From positions 1,830,001 through 1,862,000 of the forward strand of contig NZ_CP010341.1 of NCBI RefSeq assembly GCF_000940845.1: 32,000 nt of DNA. Direction: 5' to 3'. The DNA is from Propionibacterium freudenreichii subsp. freudenreichii. GTDB taxonomy: Bacteria; Actinomycetota; Actinomycetes; Propionibacteriales; Propionibacteriaceae. The stretch's first letter is position 1. Every line of letters begins with the position of its first letter. Shown here piece by piece: positions 17,831 to 23,688 of the stretch. The notes under the pieces are model-generated. The model searched no databases and was not told where the DNA came from. It saw nothing but the letters and a program-made list of their open reading frames with translations. The translations under genes were made by a program, and so were the position numbers.

Positions 17831-18430
17831 TCAGGCCCTCTGCGCGAACTCCGACCAACCTGCCTCCAGGCGAGCCATGATGGCGTCAAGATCGGCCCGT
17901 GAGGCGTCCATGTCCGTGGCCGCGAGATCGGGGATCTGGAGCACGATGCGGGCCAGGGCGCGGATCACGGCGTCCTCCGGTCGCCCCACGATCCCGGCCA
18001 GCAGGGTGGTGAGCCCGGGCTCGCAGCGCTCCCACCGTTCCTTGGCGTAGGCGCGCAGCGGCGGAGCCTCGACCACCCGGCGCACGAAGGCCGATTGCGT
18101 GCCCGAGAAGGCACCGCGGTCACGGAAGAACTGGTGCAGGGCGTCCAGCACGCTCTGCCCGTCGGCCCGCGATTCGACGGCGGTAATGATCGACTGCATC
18201 CTCTCGTCGGCAGAGTCGACGTTGTCACCGAAGATCACGGCGTTCTTGCCGTCTGGGAAGTGTTTGAACAGCGTTGTCACTGCGGTATCGGCTTCCTCGG
18301 CGATGTCGACAACGGTGACAGCCTCATAGCCGCGCGCGAGCACCAGCCTGCGCGCGGCGGCGGTGAGCGCCGACGAGGTGGCGGCCTTCTTGCGTTCGCG
18401 ACGTCCCTGGCGTTCCGCTGTCTGACTCAT
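17831..18430 (-). CDS. TetR/AcrR-family transcriptional regulator (divergent from the MFS gene)
   Basis: The HTH region reads RRERKKAATSSALTAAARRLVLARGYEAVTVVDIAEEADTAVTTLFKHFPDGKNAV. I chose the ATG at 18430. An alternative in-frame ATG at 18469 would add 13 aa. Confidence 0.8.
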   Translation of the reverse strand: MSQTAERQGRRERKKAATSSALTAAARRLVLARGYEAVTVVDIAEEADTAVTTLFKHFPDGKNAVIFGDNVDSADERMQSIITAVESRADGQSVLDALHQFFRDRGAFSGTQSAFVRRVVEAPPLRAYAKERWERCEPGLTTLLAGIVGRPEDAVIRALARIVLQIPDLAATDMDASRADLDAIMARLEAGWSEFAQRA

Positions 18431-18436
18431 GGCCTC

Positions 18437-18487
18437 AGTGTACAGATCACGTTTGTGTAGCTCCTCCATTTATGTAGTGATTACACT
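18437..18487. promoter_or_regulatory. Candidate operator half-sites (gapped inverted repeat) in the TetR/MFS divergent intergenic region
   Basis: AGTGTAcagATCAC (18437-18450) and GTGATTACACT (18477-18487) are reverse complements apart from a 3-nt indel. Confidence 0.3.
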
Positions 18488-18533
18488 TTTGCAATGGCTG
18501 CGCATATGCTGTCGCTGCGAAAGGAAGTACGTC

Positions 18534-19961
18534 ATGACACAGACATTGACCGCCGTCGAGCCCACCACGAGCTCGCGGCTCGGCAGGCGCCTCTGGGCGA
18601 TCCTCGCGGTCGTCCTCATCGCGGACGCCATCGACCTGATGGATTCCACGATCATGAACATCGCAGCCCCGACGATCCAGCGCGAGATCGGCGGCGGGGA
18701 GGGCCTCATCAAGTGGCTCGGGGCCAGCTATGCGCTCGCGCTGGGCATCCTGCTCGTGGTGGGCGGGCGACTCGGCGACCGCTTCGGGCGCCGGCGGCTG
18801 TTCCTCATCGGCATCGCCGGATTCGGGGTCGCCTCGGTGTTGTGCGCGGTGGCCATCGATCCCGCGTTCCTCATTGCCGCCCGGCTGCTCCAGGGGGCCT
18901 TCGGCGCCCTGCTCATCCCGCAGGGCATCGGCATCCTCATCGCCACCTTCTCCCGTGAGCAGTTCCCCACGGCTGCCTCGATGTTCGGCCCCGTGCTCGG
19001 TGGGGCCTCGATCGTCGGCCCGATCCTGGCGGGATTCCTCGTCGGCGCCAATATCGGTGGCCTGACGTGGCGGCCCATGTTCCTCATCAACATCGTGCTG
19101 TGCGCGGCCGGGCTCATCGCCGGATGGAAGCTGTTGCCCCCGGATCGCGACCTGCAGAAGGTGTCCATCGACGGACTCGGCTCGGCACTGTTGGCAGTGG
19201 GCATGCTCGGCGTCCTGTTCGGACTCATCCAGGGCTCGACCAACGGGTGGACTGCGGTTCCCGTGATCTGCCTGGGCCTGGGTGTCGCCGGGTTCATCGG
19301 CTTCGCCCTGCGCCAACGCCTCGCGACGAATCCCCTCATCGTGCCGGCGCTGTTCCACAACCGTGGCTTCACGTCCGGGTTGCTCATCGGGCTGGGCTAC
19401 TTCGCGGTGGTCAACGGCTTCGCCTATGTGGTCTCGCTCTACTTCCAGATGCACCTGGGGCTCAGCCCGGTGGGTGCCGCGCTGGCCATGATGCCGATGA
19501 TGGTGGGCATCATCATCGCCTCCTTCGTGGCACGCCCGCTCATCCCGAAGCTGGGACGCAACCTCGTGGTGGCCGGCCTGGCCACCACCCTGGCCGGGAT
19601 CGTCGCCCTCATCGCCATCAGCATTGCGGCGGGAGACGCCACCAACCAGTGGATGCTCGCGCCGGCGATCCTCGTGCTCGGATTGGGCATGGGCGCGTCG
19701 TTCAGCAGCATCTACGACGTCGCGATCGGCGATCTCACGACGGACCTCGCCGGTAGCGCATCGGGTTCACTGTCGGCGGTGCAGCAGCTGGCCTCGGCCA
19801 TCGGCTCGGCGGTGGTCACCACGATCTACTTCCAGACCTCGGCAGCCGCCGACGCCAACCGACCCTTCATCGCCTCACTCGTCGTGGTCGGTGCCATCAC
19901 CGCCGTCTGCCTCATCGCCGCTCCCCTGCTGCCGAAGCGTGCCCCGCAGGACGCCCACTGA
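18534..19961 (+). CDS. MFS transporter, DHA2 (EmrB/QacA-like, ~14 TMS) drug:H+ antiporter family
   Basis: The ATG at 18534 follows AAAGGAAGTACGTC. The sequence LMDSTIMNIAAPTIQREIGG, motif A GGRLGDRFGRRRLFLIG, and the 475-aa length with ~14 hydrophobic segments all fit DHA2. Confidence 0.85.
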   Translation: MTQTLTAVEPTTSSRLGRRLWAILAVVLIADAIDLMDSTIMNIAAPTIQREIGGGEGLIKWLGASYALALGILLVVGGRLGDRFGRRRLFLIGIAGFGVASVLCAVAIDPAFLIAARLLQGAFGALLIPQGIGILIATFSREQFPTAASMFGPVLGGASIVGPILAGFLVGANIGGLTWRPMFLINIVLCAAGLIAGWKLLPPDRDLQKVSIDGLGSALLAVGMLGVLFGLIQGSTNGWTAVPVICLGLGVAGFIGFALRQRLATNPLIVPALFHNRGFTSGLLIGLGYFAVVNGFAYVVSLYFQMHLGLSPVGAALAMMPMMVGIIIASFVARPLIPKLGRNLVVAGLATTLAGIVALIAISIAAGDATNQWMLAPAILVLGLGMGASFSSIYDVAIGDLTTDLAGSASGSLSAVQQLASAIGSAVVTTIYFQTSAAADANRPFIASLVVVGAITAVCLIAAPLLPKRAPQDAH

Positions 19962-20014
19962 GCGGGCCGACATATCCGACAGAAAGTAGCCGGGCGCCAT
20001 CAATGAAATCACCA

Positions 20015-20037
20015 CCCCATCCCCACCCCAGCACCCC
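20015..20037 (-). other. G-quadruplex-forming motif G4-N4-G4-N1-G4-N2-G4 (C-rich on the plus strand)
   Basis: The plus strand ccccatccccaccccagcacccc corresponds to GGGGTGCTGGGGTGGGGATGGGG on the minus strand. Confidence 0.5.
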
Positions 20038-20056
20038 TCGAGTTTCCCCTCGGGAT

Positions 20057-20087
20057 TCTACGTAGTAGACTTGCTCTACGTCGTAGA
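20057..20087. promoter_or_regulatory. Two tandem 13-bp palindromic operator-like sites upstream of the ABC-2/TetR operon
   Basis: Site A is TCTACGTAGTAGA (20057-20069; 5-3-5 palindrome, also containing the perfect 8-mer CTACGTAG). Site B is TCTACGTCGTAGA (20075-20087; perfect 6-1-6 palindrome). The two 13-mers differ at a single position and start 18 bp apart. Site B overlaps a -10-like TAGAGT located 19 nt before the ATG at 20109. Confidence 0.6.
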
Positions 20088-20108
20088 GTTACGACGGATG
20101 GAGCACGA

Positions 20109-21043
20109 ATGTTGGTAGCCAAGGGAATCATCAAGTCGTATGGGAACCTCAAGGTTCTCCGCGGCGTCGATCTGTCGGTCGAGCGAGGGCAAATTCTTGG
20201 CCTCATGGGGGTGAATGGGGCGGGCAAGACGACACTGATTTCGATCCTTGCCGGACTGACGCGGCCGGATGCCGGCGACGTGCACATTGGGGGCGTGGAT
20301 CTGCTTCGTCACCGCCGCCAGGCCGCCCGGCATATCGGGGTCGCCCCACAGGCGTTGGGCATCTACCCGACCCTGACGGTGCAGGAGAACCTGGATTGCT
20401 TTGCGGGGCTGGCTGGTTACTCCGGTCGGAAGGCCCGTTCCCGGACTGCTGAGATCGCGCGGTTGATGGGTCTGCAGGATCTGCTCGACCGGCCCGCAGG
20501 TCACCTCAGCGGTGGCCAACAGCGGCGTCTGCATACCGGGATGGCGCTTCTGGGTCACCCGGACGTCTTGTTCCTGGACGAGCCGACAGTCGGCTCGGAT
20601 GTGCAATCACGCGAGGTGCTGCTCAGCATCGTCACACATATGGCGAATGAGGGCACCGCCGTGATCTATACGACGCACTACCCCGCTGAGCTTGAGCAGT
20701 TGGATGCAACCATCAACGTGCTCGTCAACGGCAGGATCACGGTGACCGGCAGTGTCCAGGAAGTCACCGGGCAGTGGGCCTCATCATCGATATTCCTTCA
20801 TTTCCGGGGCAAGACACCGCGGAAGTGGACGGGTGGAAGGAAGACCGCGGCGGACTGGTTCCAATCCGGCCGGTCAGCGATCCCGGTCAGATGCTCGGCC
20901 AGACATTGAGCACGCTCGGGGCTGCTGCGGGCGGTCTGGACGATGTACGCATCACCCGTCCCAGCCTCGAGGCGGCGTATCTGGCGATCACGGGCGACCA
21001 TGCGCTTGCGGAAAAGGAGGCCAGCGATGTCGTTGCTGCCTAG
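20109..21043 (+). pseudogene. ABC transporter ATP-binding protein (DrrA-like, ABC-2 type), apparently frameshifted near 20780-20790
   Basis: Frame 0 (20109 onward) encodes Walker A GVNGAGKTT, the signature LSGGQQRRL, Walker B VLFLDEPT, and the H-loop TTHY. After ...VQEVTGQWASS it degenerates into basic junk up to the stop at 20909. Frame 2 (open from 20696, ending at TAG 21041-21043) encodes the expected C-terminal domain ...IIDIPSFPGQDTAEVDGW...VRITRPSLEAAYLAITG and overlaps the permease start as usual. Confidence 0.6.
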
Positions 21044-21800
21044 CATGTCGATTGCCAGAACTACCTGGAGGCTGCAGCTGCGCGATCCTGGGTCGTCAGT
21101 AATCATGACCCTCCTGCCGCTCATCCTCGTGCCGCTGCTGAACCCCAGCGCGAAGGCACAGCTGATCCTGTCCGGATATCCGAACGCCAGCGGTGCCGAG
21201 CAGACGGTGCCTGGGCTCGCCATATTGTGCGCGTTCCTGTCCGTTGAGCAGGTCACCACCTTGTTCTTCCGCGAACATGCGTGGGGAACATGGGACCGGC
21301 TGCGCGCCAGCGCGGCGTCCACTGCCGACATCGTGACAGGCAAAGTTGTTGTCCGCTTCCTGATTCAGCTCGCTCAGACTGCCATCGTCTTCGCCGTGGG
21401 TGCGCTCATCTTCGGTTACCGTCCCAACGGCTCGGTGCTCGCGATCGGTATCGTCGTGATCGTGTTCACCGCCATGCTCGTCGCCTTTGGCGTGATGCTT
21501 GTCGCGCTGTTTCGCACCATGGATCAGGCCGATACGGTCGGAATGCTCGTGGGCATGCTCCTGGCCGGCCTGGGCGGCGCCCTGGCACCTGTCGCGTCGT
21601 TCCCCGGCTGGGTGCAATCGCTGGCCCACGTCAGCCCCGCCTTCTGGGTGTTGGACGCCCTGCGCCGCCTCACCCTGGACAGCGCACACCTGACTGACGT
21701 GATGCCCGCGATAATCGGCACGCTCGCCTTTACCGCCGGGTTCGCACTGATTGCCGCCGTCAGCTTCCGCTCCAATGCCGTGAAAGTAGGCACCACATGA
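21027..21800 (+). CDS. ABC-2 type transporter permease
   Basis: The ATG at 21027 follows AAAAGGAGGCCAGCG. The 257-aa product has 6 predicted TM helices and the typical N-terminus ARTTWRLQLRDPGSSVIMTLLPLIL. It overlaps the frame-2 end of the ATPase by 17 nt. Confidence 0.8.
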   Translation: MSLLPSMSIARTTWRLQLRDPGSSVIMTLLPLILVPLLNPSAKAQLILSGYPNASGAEQTVPGLAILCAFLSVEQVTTLFFREHAWGTWDRLRASAASTADIVTGKVVVRFLIQLAQTAIVFAVGALIFGYRPNGSVLAIGIVVIVFTAMLVAFGVMLVALFRTMDQADTVGMLVGMLLAGLGGALAPVASFPGWVQSLAHVSPAFWVLDALRRLTLDSAHLTDVMPAIIGTLAFTAGFALIAAVSFRSNAVKVGTT

Positions 21801-22435
21801 GTACGAGTGGGCGTCCCATGCGCCCGACCCTGTCCCGGGACTACATCCTTCACACTGCATTGCACATCGTGGACCGTGACGGTTCCGACAAACTCACCAT
21901 GCGCCGGCTGGGCACCGAGCTTGGCGTAGATCCGATGGCCATTTACCACTATGTGCCGAACAAGGCCGCCCTGTTCGACGGCATTGCCGAGACGATCTGG
22001 TCATCGCTCGACCTGGGCGTCCCGAGCCCGGACGAAAGCTGGCAGCAGCAACTCATCGCCGCCATGCGCGCCTTGCGTGGAGTCCTGCGGGCGCACCCGA
22101 ACGCGGTCGCCCTCGTCGGCACCCGGCCCGTAACCAGCCCCGAGCTCCTAACCGTCATAGAGCAACTGCTCGGCTTTCTCACCGAGGCGGGCATGCCTGC
22201 AGACGCTGATACGGCCGATCTGCTGAGCACCCTGGTCAACTACACGATCGGCCAAGTCCTCGCAGAGGTCGGCGAGCCGGTCGGAGCAGAGTCAGCCCCA
22301 GCCAATTACCAGGCCCTGTCTCCCCAGACCCACCCACATCTGAGCGCCCTGCTGAACAACGGCTGGACTTACGATCCGGACGCCCAGTATGACCACGGTC
22401 TCAACGCCCTGCTCGCAGGCTGGCGCCAGACCTGA
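21797..22435 (+). CDS. TetR-family transcriptional regulator (last gene of the ABC-2 operon)
   Basis: The ATG overlaps the permease stop (ATGA). The HTH region reads LSRDYILHTALHIVDRDGSDKLTMRRLGTELGVDPMAIYHYVPNKAALF, and a TetR-type C-terminal domain follows. Confidence 0.85.
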   Translation: MSTSGRPMRPTLSRDYILHTALHIVDRDGSDKLTMRRLGTELGVDPMAIYHYVPNKAALFDGIAETIWSSLDLGVPSPDESWQQQLIAAMRALRGVLRAHPNAVALVGTRPVTSPELLTVIEQLLGFLTEAGMPADADTADLLSTLVNYTIGQVLAEVGEPVGAESAPANYQALSPQTHPHLSALLNNGWTYDPDAQYDHGLNALLAGWRQT

Positions 22436-22549
22436 CACCCCCACGCGAACACGGTTCCTTGCATATCCAGATCCAGGGACCCATCGGCCGCCTCAGCGAG
22501 TGCCATCTCCGGTCCAAGACCAGCGCTGGCCTCACATGTAGCGGGGTCG

Positions 22550-22622
22550 TGCCCCCAGCGGGATTCGAACCCGCACTGGAGCGGGTTTAAGCCGCCTGCC
22601 TCTGCCGTTGGGCTACGGGGGC
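22550..22622 (-). tRNA. 73-nt tRNA, anticodon UAA (nominally Leu/UUA) but with class-I architecture (5-nt variable loop); isotype uncertain
   Basis: Hand-folded cloverleaf of the reverse complement: GCCCCCG TA GCCC AACGGCAG AGGC A GGCGG CTTAAAC CCGCT CCAGT GCGGG TTCGAAT CCCGC TGGGGGC A. The T-loop is the canonical TTCGAAT. No CCA is encoded. Confidence 0.85.
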
Positions 22623-22630
22623 CCGGAAAC

Positions 22631-22636
22631 AGACTA
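22631..22636 (-). promoter_or_regulatory. Candidate -10 box TAGTCT (TANNNT), 8 nt upstream of the tRNA 5' end
   Basis: The minus strand reads ...CCGATTAGTCTGTTTCCGG|GCCCCCG. Confidence 0.3.
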
Positions 22637-22731
22637 ATCGGCGGCACCCACACGCGCGACACGAACCGGGACAACCAGGGCCAACCGGCGATTCACCGGA
22701 CCTGCCCACCAAGACGGCCCAGGCCCGTGCG

Positions 22732-23688
22732 CTAGTCGGCGCTGATCGCCTGTCCCTTGCCGTCCACCAGCATGCTCAACGCGATGCCATCGAGGATGTC
22801 GGACTCGCTCACCACGAGTTCGGGTGCCCCCACGCGGGAGGCGACCTCCTCGACGATCAGGGCCCCGGCGCACAACACCTCGGCACGCTGCGGCTGCACG
22901 GGCCCCCAGCTGACCACCTCGGACACGGTGGCACCCAGCAGCCGATCAGCCACCTCGTGCACCGCTGCCTGGCTCAACACCGAGCCGTGCACGCGCGAGC
23001 GGTCGTAGCGGCGCAGGTGCTGTGCAAGGGCGGACATGGTGGTCACGGTGCCGGCCACGCCGATGAAGGTGCGGATGTCGGACAGCTCCACCCCGCTCGA
23101 GTCGAGCTCGGAGCGCACCAACTGCCGGGCACGGGCGATCTCGTCGGCCGTGGGCGGGTCAGAGCGCAGGATGCGCTCGCGCAGTCGCCGGGAACCGATG
23201 TTGAGGCTCACCGACGCGTCGATGTGGGCCAGGTCCGCGCCCGCGCCGACGCCGCGCACCAGCTCGGTGGATCCCCCACCGGAGTCCATCACCAACACCG
23301 GGTCGGCCTTGGACCGGATGCCCGACAGGGCCCCCCGGAAACTCAGGTGCGCCTCTTCCTGCCCCGACACCACCTCGGCGTTGATGCCCAGCCGGGCGCG
23401 CACCCCACGGAACAGCTCGTCGCGGTTCTGGGCGTCGCGGGTGGCCGAGGTGGCCACGAAGCGTCCCCGCTCGCAGTCGAGGTCGGCAATGATCTCGTTG
23501 AACTGCTCGCAGGCGTCGAACGCGCGGTTGAGGGCATCGGGGGCGAACAGGCCGGTGGCGTCGACGCCCTGACCCAACCCCACGAACAACAGCCTGCGGT
23601 CGTATTCGTGCAGCGATCCATCGGGGTTGAGGCTTGCCACGAACAACCTCATCGTGTTCGTTCCGCAGTCGATCGCCGCAACCCTCAT
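22732..23688 (-). CDS. ppx: Ppx/GppA-family phosphatase (exopolyphosphatase-like)
   Basis: The N-terminus is the ASKHA-fold motif MRVAAIDCGTNTMRLFVA. Also present are ATSATRDAQN and the DSGGGSTE phosphate loop. The start overlaps the stop of the upstream DUF501 gene by 4 nt. Confidence 0.85.
   Translation of the reverse strand: MRVAAIDCGTNTMRLFVASLNPDGSLHEYDRRLLFVGLGQGVDATGLFAPDALNRAFDACEQFNEIIADLDCERGRFVATSATRDAQNRDELFRGVRARLGINAEVVSGQEEAHLSFRGALSGIRSKADPVLVMDSGGGSTELVRGVGAGADLAHIDASVSLNIGSRRLRERILRSDPPTADEIARARQLVRSELDSSGVELSDIRTFIGVAGTVTTMSALAQHLRRYDRSRVHGSVLSQAAVHEVADRLLGATVSEVVSWGPVQPQRAEVLCAGALIVEEVASRVGAPELVVSESDILDGIALSMLVDGKGQAISAD

Follow-up and report, generated by a model that had tools for sequence, protein, structure and literature searches.

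The window, i.e., the whole stretch of 32,000 nucleotides (nt) from contig NZ_CP010341.1 of Propionibacterium freudenreichii subsp. freudenreichii, contains a small gene cassette of the efflux type. Three genes were recognized on the same strand, i.e., an ATP-binding cassette (ABC) ATPase (PF00005), an ABC-2 permease (PF01061), and a TetR-family repressor with TetR_N and TetR_C_1 domains. Two short palindromes, here called site 1 and site 2, are placed just upstream of the ATPase gene. With a probability of about 0.82, they are predicted to be tandem operators of the TetR whose gene (21797-22435) closes this operon. An earlier note on this DNA had proposed the same role for them, an operator pair for the cassette's own TetR, and the proposal gained support from motif co-occurrence, recognition-helix covariation, and alignment to the repressor SimR. 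The coordinates of the features are collected in Table 1.

By direct reading, site 1 is TCTACGTAGTAGA and site 2 is TCTACGTCGTAGA. Five of the six arm pairs of site 1 are palindromic, with one arm mismatch, and site 2 is perfect as a 6-1-6 palindrome. Counting the C and G on its sides, site 2 extends to a 7-1-7 palindrome, CTCTACGTCGTAGAG. The sites differ at one base and are 18 base pairs (bp) apart, start to start. The description of twin 13-bp palindromes in the earlier note, including their coordinates, spacing, and the perfection of the second one, was borne out. The direct repeat of the two sites reaches 16 nt, i.e., TCTACGTAGTAGACTT and TCTACGTCGTAGAGTT, which are 88% identical. The sites had also been placed on roughly opposite faces of the helix. 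At 10.5 bp per turn, 18 bp amounts to 1.71 turns, so one site is turned by about 103 degrees (257 the other way) against the next, and opposite faces hold only as an approximation.

The two palindromes together span 31 bp, 52 to 22 nt upstream of the start codon of the first gene, i.e., beside the operon of the TetR gene itself, and 21 nt separate the end of site 2 from the ATG at 20109. They are inside a 147-bp gap between this ATG and the end, at 19961, of a major facilitator superfamily (MFS) efflux gene. The motif TCTACGNCGTAGA was matched twice in the 32-kb window at up to one mismatch, against 0.01 matches expected, and two or more matches occurred in none of 100 shuffles. At up to two mismatches there were three matches against 0.51 expected, and the third one is weak and located at 19711 within the MFS gene.

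Tandem C-rich short direct repeats were seen just upstream of the operators, i.e., ATCACCACCCC and ATCCCCACCCC (20008-20029), and CCCCTCGAGTTT and CCCCTCGGGATT (20034-20057). These repeats at 20008-20057 sit where the orthologues have their -35 region.

The TetR protein was assigned by PF00440 (TetR_N, 30.4 bits against a cut-off of 24) and PF02909 (TetR_C_1, residues 76-210, 71.5 bits against 21). Its reading frame is intact, and the protein is 99% identical to a P. freudenreichii 'Transcriptional regulator'. Full-length matches in the PDB included 3bqy, an uncharacterised Streptomyces regulator, TetR(A/B/D), ActR, and SimR. It is TetR-like but not a tetracycline repressor proper, since the equivalog model NCBIfam PRK13756 scored 93.3 bits against a cut-off of 265. 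The ATG of the TetR gene overlaps the stop codon of the permease gene as ATGA, and the gene order ATPase-permease-TetR is kept in at least 12 orthologous loci. By the shared strand, the ATGA overlap, and the conserved order, the TetR gene is predicted to belong to the regulated transcription unit, as its last gene and translationally coupled to the permease. The operon ending in its own TetR gene had been noted earlier, and both the arrangement and the coordinates were correct.

Homologues of the cassette TetR (33-100% identity) were collected with their loci from genome and metagenome collections, which gave 168 loci. Only 19 of them have the ABC ATPase, the permease, or both immediately before the TetR gene. 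A weight matrix was built from 20 sites of eight syntenic orthologous operons only, and the 168 loci and the window were scanned with it. Sites 1 and 2 obtained the top two scores in the window, where the scan detected no further strong operator site. In 1.2 Mb of homologue loci, 388 hits were found, against 88-113 in shuffles. Adjacent hits were exactly 18 bp apart in 24 pairs, against none in shuffles, and 31-33 bp apart in 40 pairs, with smaller classes at 36-39, 22, and 12-13 bp.

Clusters of at least two sites were present in 97 of the 169 scanned sequences, i.e., 96 of the 168 loci and the window. The 100 clusters over the 96 loci are made of TCTAC[AG]N[CT]GTAGA-type palindromes, which nearly always come as two or three copies. 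Most of the clusters (78/100) fall in the 300 bp that precede the TetR start; these intervals account for 4.2% of the sequence. A further 17 are found 300-2000 bp upstream, where an operon begins whose last gene is TetR. Because 87 of the 96 cluster-bearing loci are without any ABC transporter genes and the clusters adjoin TetR, the motif is best described, on these comparisons, as travelling with the repressor gene and not with the pump. It is chiefly for this reason that the cassette TetR is predicted to be the binder of sites 1 and 2. Perfect pairs of TCTAC[AG]N[CT]GTAGA or CTTACGNCGTAAG were also observed just upstream of TetR in L010, L021, L025, L033, and about 35 other loci (33-47% identity) from Acidobacteria, Rubrobacteria, Streptomyces, and others. 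Pairs of this type are spaced 31-33 or 36-39 bp apart.

The operator sequence varies together with the recognition helix. Homologues with GVDPMA(I/V)Y, the type of the window, have TCTAC[AG]N[CT]GTAGA operators, those with GVEAMT(L/V)Y have CTTAC[AG]N[CT]GTAAG operators, and those with GVNPMA(A/F)Y have (G/T)(C/A)TACGN..GTATA operators. In Bifidobacterium, GVSGPAIY stands in place of GVDPMAIY and the operators begin with GTTAAC. It is the outer bases of the operator that change along with the residues preceding the recognition-helix Met, and the spacing classes also follow the recognition-helix sequence. The inner TAC-N3-GTA core is almost invariant among the homologues, as are Met35-Arg36, Met47, Tyr50, and Lys56.

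These results bear on whether another regulator, i.e., the second TetR of the window (17831-18431) or a global factor, binds the palindromes, with the target of the cassette TetR at some other place. Directly upstream there are indeed a second TetR-family gene and the MFS efflux gene. However, in 96 loci whose gene content differs widely, the motif accompanies homologues of the cassette TetR, and it covaries with the recognition helix of this protein. The two TetR proteins have no detectable similarity (BLASTP E = 25), and the repeats are different in the separate intergenic region of the upstream pair. The upstream TetR was rejected as the binder, being unrelated to the cassette TetR, and binding by any other regulator is considered very improbable.

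The upstream module itself (17831-19961) consists of a minus-strand regulator with only a TetR_N domain, whose start is probably 18431, divergent from a DHA2/EmrB-type MFS pump that probably begins at ATG 18535. Its intergenic region of about 100 bp has its own repeats, e.g., TGTAGTGATTACA around 18473, and no TCTACG-type site.

The assignment of sites 1 and 2 to the cassette TetR was also compared with known structures. The DNA-binding domain of the cassette TetR aligns without gaps to SimR and TetR(D), and SimR (PDB 3ZQL) ranks second among the solved structures that match it. The DNA in the SimR crystal is TTCGTACGGCGTACGAA, with a single dimer on each palindrome; there Arg51 reads G, and Met62 touches both T and A of the GTA triplet. 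Residues T34-M35-R36 of the cassette TetR correspond to S49-M50-R51 of SimR, and M47, Y50, Y52, and K56 to M62, Y65, Y67, and K71. The two proteins share the DNA-contacting residues, i.e., Met-Arg in helix 2 and Met, Tyr, Tyr, and Lys within helix 3 or just past it, and the operator core TACGNCGTA is identical. SimR is of the same TetR_C_1-type subfamily (whole-protein PDB match 9.4e-13) and also has two operators, OX and OR. In contrast, the SimR operators are 17 bp long with TTCG/CGAA flanks, lie in the divergent simR-simX intergenic region, and are not tiled at 18 bp. SimR controls the MFS simocyclinone exporter of Streptomyces antibioticus, and it has a long Arg-rich N-terminal arm, whereas the extension of the cassette TetR has about 12 residues with R6 and R9.

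Because of this homology to SimR, i.e., the gap-free alignment, the TACGNCGTA core, and the matching residues, one homodimer would be expected on each 13-bp palindrome. The TAC...GTA core would be read by Arg36 of helix 2 and by Met47 at the start of the recognition helix. Two dimers would then be neighbours on the DNA, with their centres 18 bp from each other and an angle of about 103 degrees between them around the helix. Since the promoter and the transcription start are presumed to lie where the sites are, the bound repressors would block RNA polymerase or promoter escape. The ATPase, the permease, and the repressor would be held down together, which would make a negative autoregulation. 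From what the family does, a small molecule, probably the substrate of the pump, would bind the TetR_C_1 domain, spread the recognition helices, and free the DNA.

Table 1. Features of the cassette and its upstream region (positions in the window)
Feature	Position	Strand	Remarks
Operator site 1 (predicted)	20057-20069	.	Imperfect 6-1-6; matrix score 18.0; homologous sites in L081, L085, L087, L093, L094, and L169
Candidate -10, TAGACT (TANNNT)	20065-20070	+	At the right end of site 1; L169 has TAGAGT in the corresponding place
Operator site 2 (predicted)	20075-20087	.	Perfect 6-1-6; matrix score 20.3; identical 13-mer beside homologous TetR genes in L062 and L135
Candidate -10, TAGAGT	20084-20089	+	Right end of site 2; TAGAAA there in L169
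Half-site-like TACGACGGA	20090-20098	.	13 bp after site 2 start; probable remnant of the third operator of the orthologues
Shine-Dalgarno-like GGAG	20100-20103	+	5 nt before ATG 20109; direct reading
DrrA-like ABC ATPase gene, frameshifted	20109-21043	+	Pfam ABC_tran 4.2e-34; open frame ends at 20909 (266 amino acids)
ABC-2 (DrrB-like) permease	21027-21800	+	257 amino acids from ATG 21027; Pfam ABC2_membrane 9.1e-25; orthologues align from 21027
TetR-family repressor, predicted binder of sites 1 and 2	21797-22435	+	212 amino acids; TetR_N and TetR_C_1

In the syntenic loci, a palindrome of the same kind was found wherever the region upstream of the ATPase was available. Three sites at 18 + 18 bp are present in L081 (69% TetR identity; TCTACACTGTCGA, TCTACACTGTAGA, and TCTACATAGTAGT), L085 (56%), L087 (55%), and L093/L094 (53%). 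Two sites 18 bp apart were found in L169 (69%) and L003 (48%), and L169, whose genes are intact, is the closest relative with the two-site layout. L008 (43%) has a perfect TCTACGACGTAGA located 8 nt before the ATG. The Bifidobacterium loci L016 (3175-3210) and L107 (about 2170-2205), which are orthologous over the whole operon, have a different palindrome, GTTAACGNTGTTAA, i.e., GTTAACG(A/T)TGTTA, and the 18-bp spacing is kept.

A clear promoter was read in L085, L087, L093, L094, and L003, i.e., TTGAC(T/A/G) and TA(C/G)(T/C)(C/T)T with 17 or 18 nt between them. Site 1 fills the spacer, site 2 starts within the -10 hexamer, and site 3, if any, is in the leader by the ribosome-binding site. The sites of these five orthologues thus lie within and across a TTGACN-17-TANNNT promoter, and the window has only two TANNNT candidates. 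Comparison of these loci shows that the two-site layout goes back to an array of three operators at 18-bp intervals across a TTGAC(T/A)-17-TA(C/G)TCT promoter. More distant orthologues have kept this array, and the P. freudenreichii lineage has lost the promoter hexamers and the third full site.

A full third site follows 18 bp further on in the three-site orthologues; in its stead, the window has a displaced half-site. The earlier note had listed an extra half-site-like TACGAC, which is indeed present and starts at 20090, not at 20091. A third full operator was not found at 18 bp on either side (20039 or 20093) by inspection and matrix scan. The counterpart of the half-site in L169 is CTACGTCGG, at a 14-bp offset. 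The half-site resembles the left arm of the third site of the ancestor, shifted nearer by a deletion of 4-5 bp. Together with the right arm of site 2, it makes a 7-4-7 everted inverted repeat, CGTCGTA-GAGT-TACGACG (20079-20096), and the counterpart in L169 is GCGTAG-AAA-CTACGT at 270-285. The repeat could be what is left of a third operator, or a small hairpin of the leader.

An element working at the RNA level has also to be considered, i.e., hairpins that end the MFS transcript, or that stabilise or occlude the ATPase leader and its Shine-Dalgarno sequence. Sites 1 and 2 are complementary, and an inverted repeat with 23-nt arms (74% complementary) and a 5-nt gap is present. In the fold of lowest energy, stems form between 20079-20085 and 20090-20096 and between GCUCU and GGAGC, and L169 has the similar small inverted repeat. 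However, the segment 20045-20115 folds at -24.3 kcal/mol, and 10 of 200 shuffles were as good. This folding energy is not significant (z = -1.62), and RNA structure was rejected as the main explanation. No U-tract follows the hairpin, and no terminator was found here by the terminator scan. Each site is palindromic alone with a 1-nt centre, which is impossible as a hairpin loop. In relatives the sites are found 31-39 bp apart within divergent intergenic regions, and their spacers are unrelated. The centre and flank bases vary independently between sites, which fits protein dimers and not a conserved stem. An RNA element is therefore hardly credible as the role of the two palindromes.

Of the two candidate -10 hexamers in the window, TAGAGT had been noted earlier as overlapping site 2, 19 nt before the ATPase start, and this position (19 nt, 20090-20108) agreed with direct reading. 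The other candidate, TAGACT, is mildly favoured as the -10, because L169 has TAGAGT at the site 1 position and TAGAAA at the site 2 position.

Several observations weigh against the reading of sites 1 and 2 as working operators. A promoter scan of 19700-22800 found no sigma-70-like consensus promoter. At the positions of the orthologue hexamers, the window reads CTCGGG and TGCTCT, and because these hexamers are lost, the placement of the promoter relative to the sites is a guess. It is possible that transcription reads through from the upstream MFS gene on the same strand, with the sites then acting as a roadblock. A terminator scan of the same region found only one terminator-like site, which is within the ATPase gene, and none between the MFS gene and the operators. 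In addition, the ATPase gene is frameshifted in the allele of the window, so the pump may be inactive and the sites may be relics.

The frameshift was recognized by alignment to L001, a Propionibacterium genome with an intact ATPase of 310 amino acids (aa) and only three other differences from the window over 2.5 kb. A 2-bp CG insertion at 20818-20819 changes the frame. Orthologous ATPases have 308-310 aa, and by tblastn their last residues, about 72, align to 20822-21040 of the window in the other frame. The open reading frame (ORF) 20109-20909, taken for the ATPase, is that of a frameshifted allele. The truncated 266-aa form was found on 53 P. freudenreichii contigs and the 310-aa form on at least 92. 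Intact forms are on well over 100 contigs of the species and make the majority. Because both alleles are recorded on many contigs, the frameshift is read as a real polymorphism and not as a one-off sequencing error.

In close relatives, the cassette was also observed to be broken in other ways. In L082 (122-1714) and L083 (374-1966), the ATPase and most of the permease have given way to an ISL3 element, and these remnants lack the upstream region; the cassette-broken close relatives have TetR identities of 67-72%. TetR remnants were found beside transposase fragments in L170-L174, and a homologue without detectable TetR_N adjoins a Transposase_mut fragment. The ISL3 insertions and the TetR remnants are further signs that the cassette is dispensable in relatives.

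From this decay it could be argued that the sites have no present regulatory role and persist as relics of a dying cassette, with too little time for their loss. The lost -35 and -10 positions, the frameshift allele on 53 contigs, the ISL3-broken cassettes, and the TetR genes beside transposase fragments are all in its favour. However, both palindromes are nearly perfect and score highest in the window, and they are identical in L001, where the 310-aa ATPase is intact. The TetR frame is intact and 99% conserved among strains, most P. freudenreichii contigs have an intact ATPase, and L169 keeps the two-site layout with intact genes. The relic explanation appears quite improbable, but in the frameshift allele a reduced importance of the sites is plausible.

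The permease was assigned as an ABC-2 membrane subunit by PF01061 (87.9 bits against a cut-off of 26.9), and the DrrB-family NCBIfam models scored under their cut-offs. Its ATG at 21027 is preceded by GGAAAAGGAGG and falls in the out-of-frame 3' end of the ATPase gene. This is most probably the start of the gene; the longer ORF from 20943 is probably an artefact and not the one in use. The best NCBIfam match of the ATPase is TIGR01188 drrA, with 214.5 bits against a cut-off of 312.45 and coverage of model positions 1-213 of 302. With the score below the cut-off and the C-terminal part out of frame, it was not assigned as a full-length DrrA ATPase. Through this match, and the permease matches to DrrB/ABC-2 families, the pair resembles the DrrAB daunorubicin-resistance family, although all scores are under the family cut-offs and the ATPase is truncated in the allele of the window.

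By architecture, the closest parallel of the operator array is the pristinamycin-responsive TetR-family repressor Pip and its Streptomyces promoter Pptr. Pip represses Pptr through three operators, i.e., over the -35, over the -10, and past the transcription start, and each of them consists of two 4-bp palindromes with 3 bp between. The Pip operator is GTAC-N3-GTAC, which contains the TAC-N3-GTA core, and the sites in Pptr are spaced about 22-23 bp apart. Several short palindromic operators share one promoter in Pptr, and the three-site orthologues match it in this. However, the Pip gene is apart from ptr, and ptr is an MFS pump, whereas here an ABC-2 operon ends with the repressor gene. The outer bases here are CTAC/GTAG instead of GTAC, and the spacing is exactly 18 bp.

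TetR of Tn10 and relatives is the founding TetR_C_1 member, and it was hit in the PDB at around 1e-18. It binds two 15-bp palindromes with a dimer on each, is released by inducer, and controls the efflux gene and itself. The operator ends are similar (TCTA...TAGA). In contrast, tetO is a 15-bp 7-1-7 palindrome, TCTATCANTGATAGA, in a divergent intergenic region, and the recognition helix is EQPTLYWH versus DPMAIYHY in the cassette TetR.

In Streptomyces, some 15% of the TetR-family genes share a transcript with an adjacent gene and form a recognised class, and footprinted operators of the family are often two or three similar palindromes, e.g., three copies of TGGAACGNCGTTCCA for SCO7222 (Ahn, Cuthbertson and Nodwell 2012). 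The operator sequence of the window is absent from their list. The operator strings tried in open-access literature text gave only irrelevant primer matches, and nothing was found there on a TetR/ABC transporter efflux locus of P. freudenreichii. Judged from these comparisons of sequence, the system is most simply described as the TetR paradigm in co-transcribed form, with a SimR-type core and a Pip-like multi-operator promoter in its ancestry.

A wider, uncharacterised rule was considered, of which the operator pair of the window may be one instance, for a large clade of TetR_C_1 repressors from Actinobacteria, Acidobacteria, and Chloroflexi. The operator spacing is quantised and specific to subclades, and the two residues in front of the recognition-helix Met (D-P, E-A, or N-P) appear to set the outer bases. 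As a whole, this rule is a tentative proposal and rather unlikely to hold. If the 18-bp arrays did reflect contacts between dimers, e.g., by the conserved R-P-x-L-S-R N-terminal arm in the 5-bp linker, the repressors would form a cooperative spiral over the promoter. Such a spiral of two or three dimers would be an assembly distinct from those of TetR, with independent dimers, and QacR, with overlapping dimers.

For P. freudenreichii, a dairy and probiotic bacterium, a previously anonymous ABC-2 efflux cassette is given a concrete cis-element and a likely regulator. The common broken-ATPase allele is relevant to differences between strains in their tolerance of antimicrobials or metabolites. 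The current understanding of the TetR-family repressor mechanism is unchanged by these results, and only the family-wide regularities, i.e., the quantised spacing and the helix-base link, might repay further work. The comparative data give a simple link from recognition-helix residues to operator bases, and the motif TCTAC[AG]N[CT]GTAGA with its variants is usable for a few hundred uncharacterised TetR-like repressors. The compact multi-operator promoters are possible inducible-expression parts for high-GC Gram-positives, as Pip/Pptr already is.

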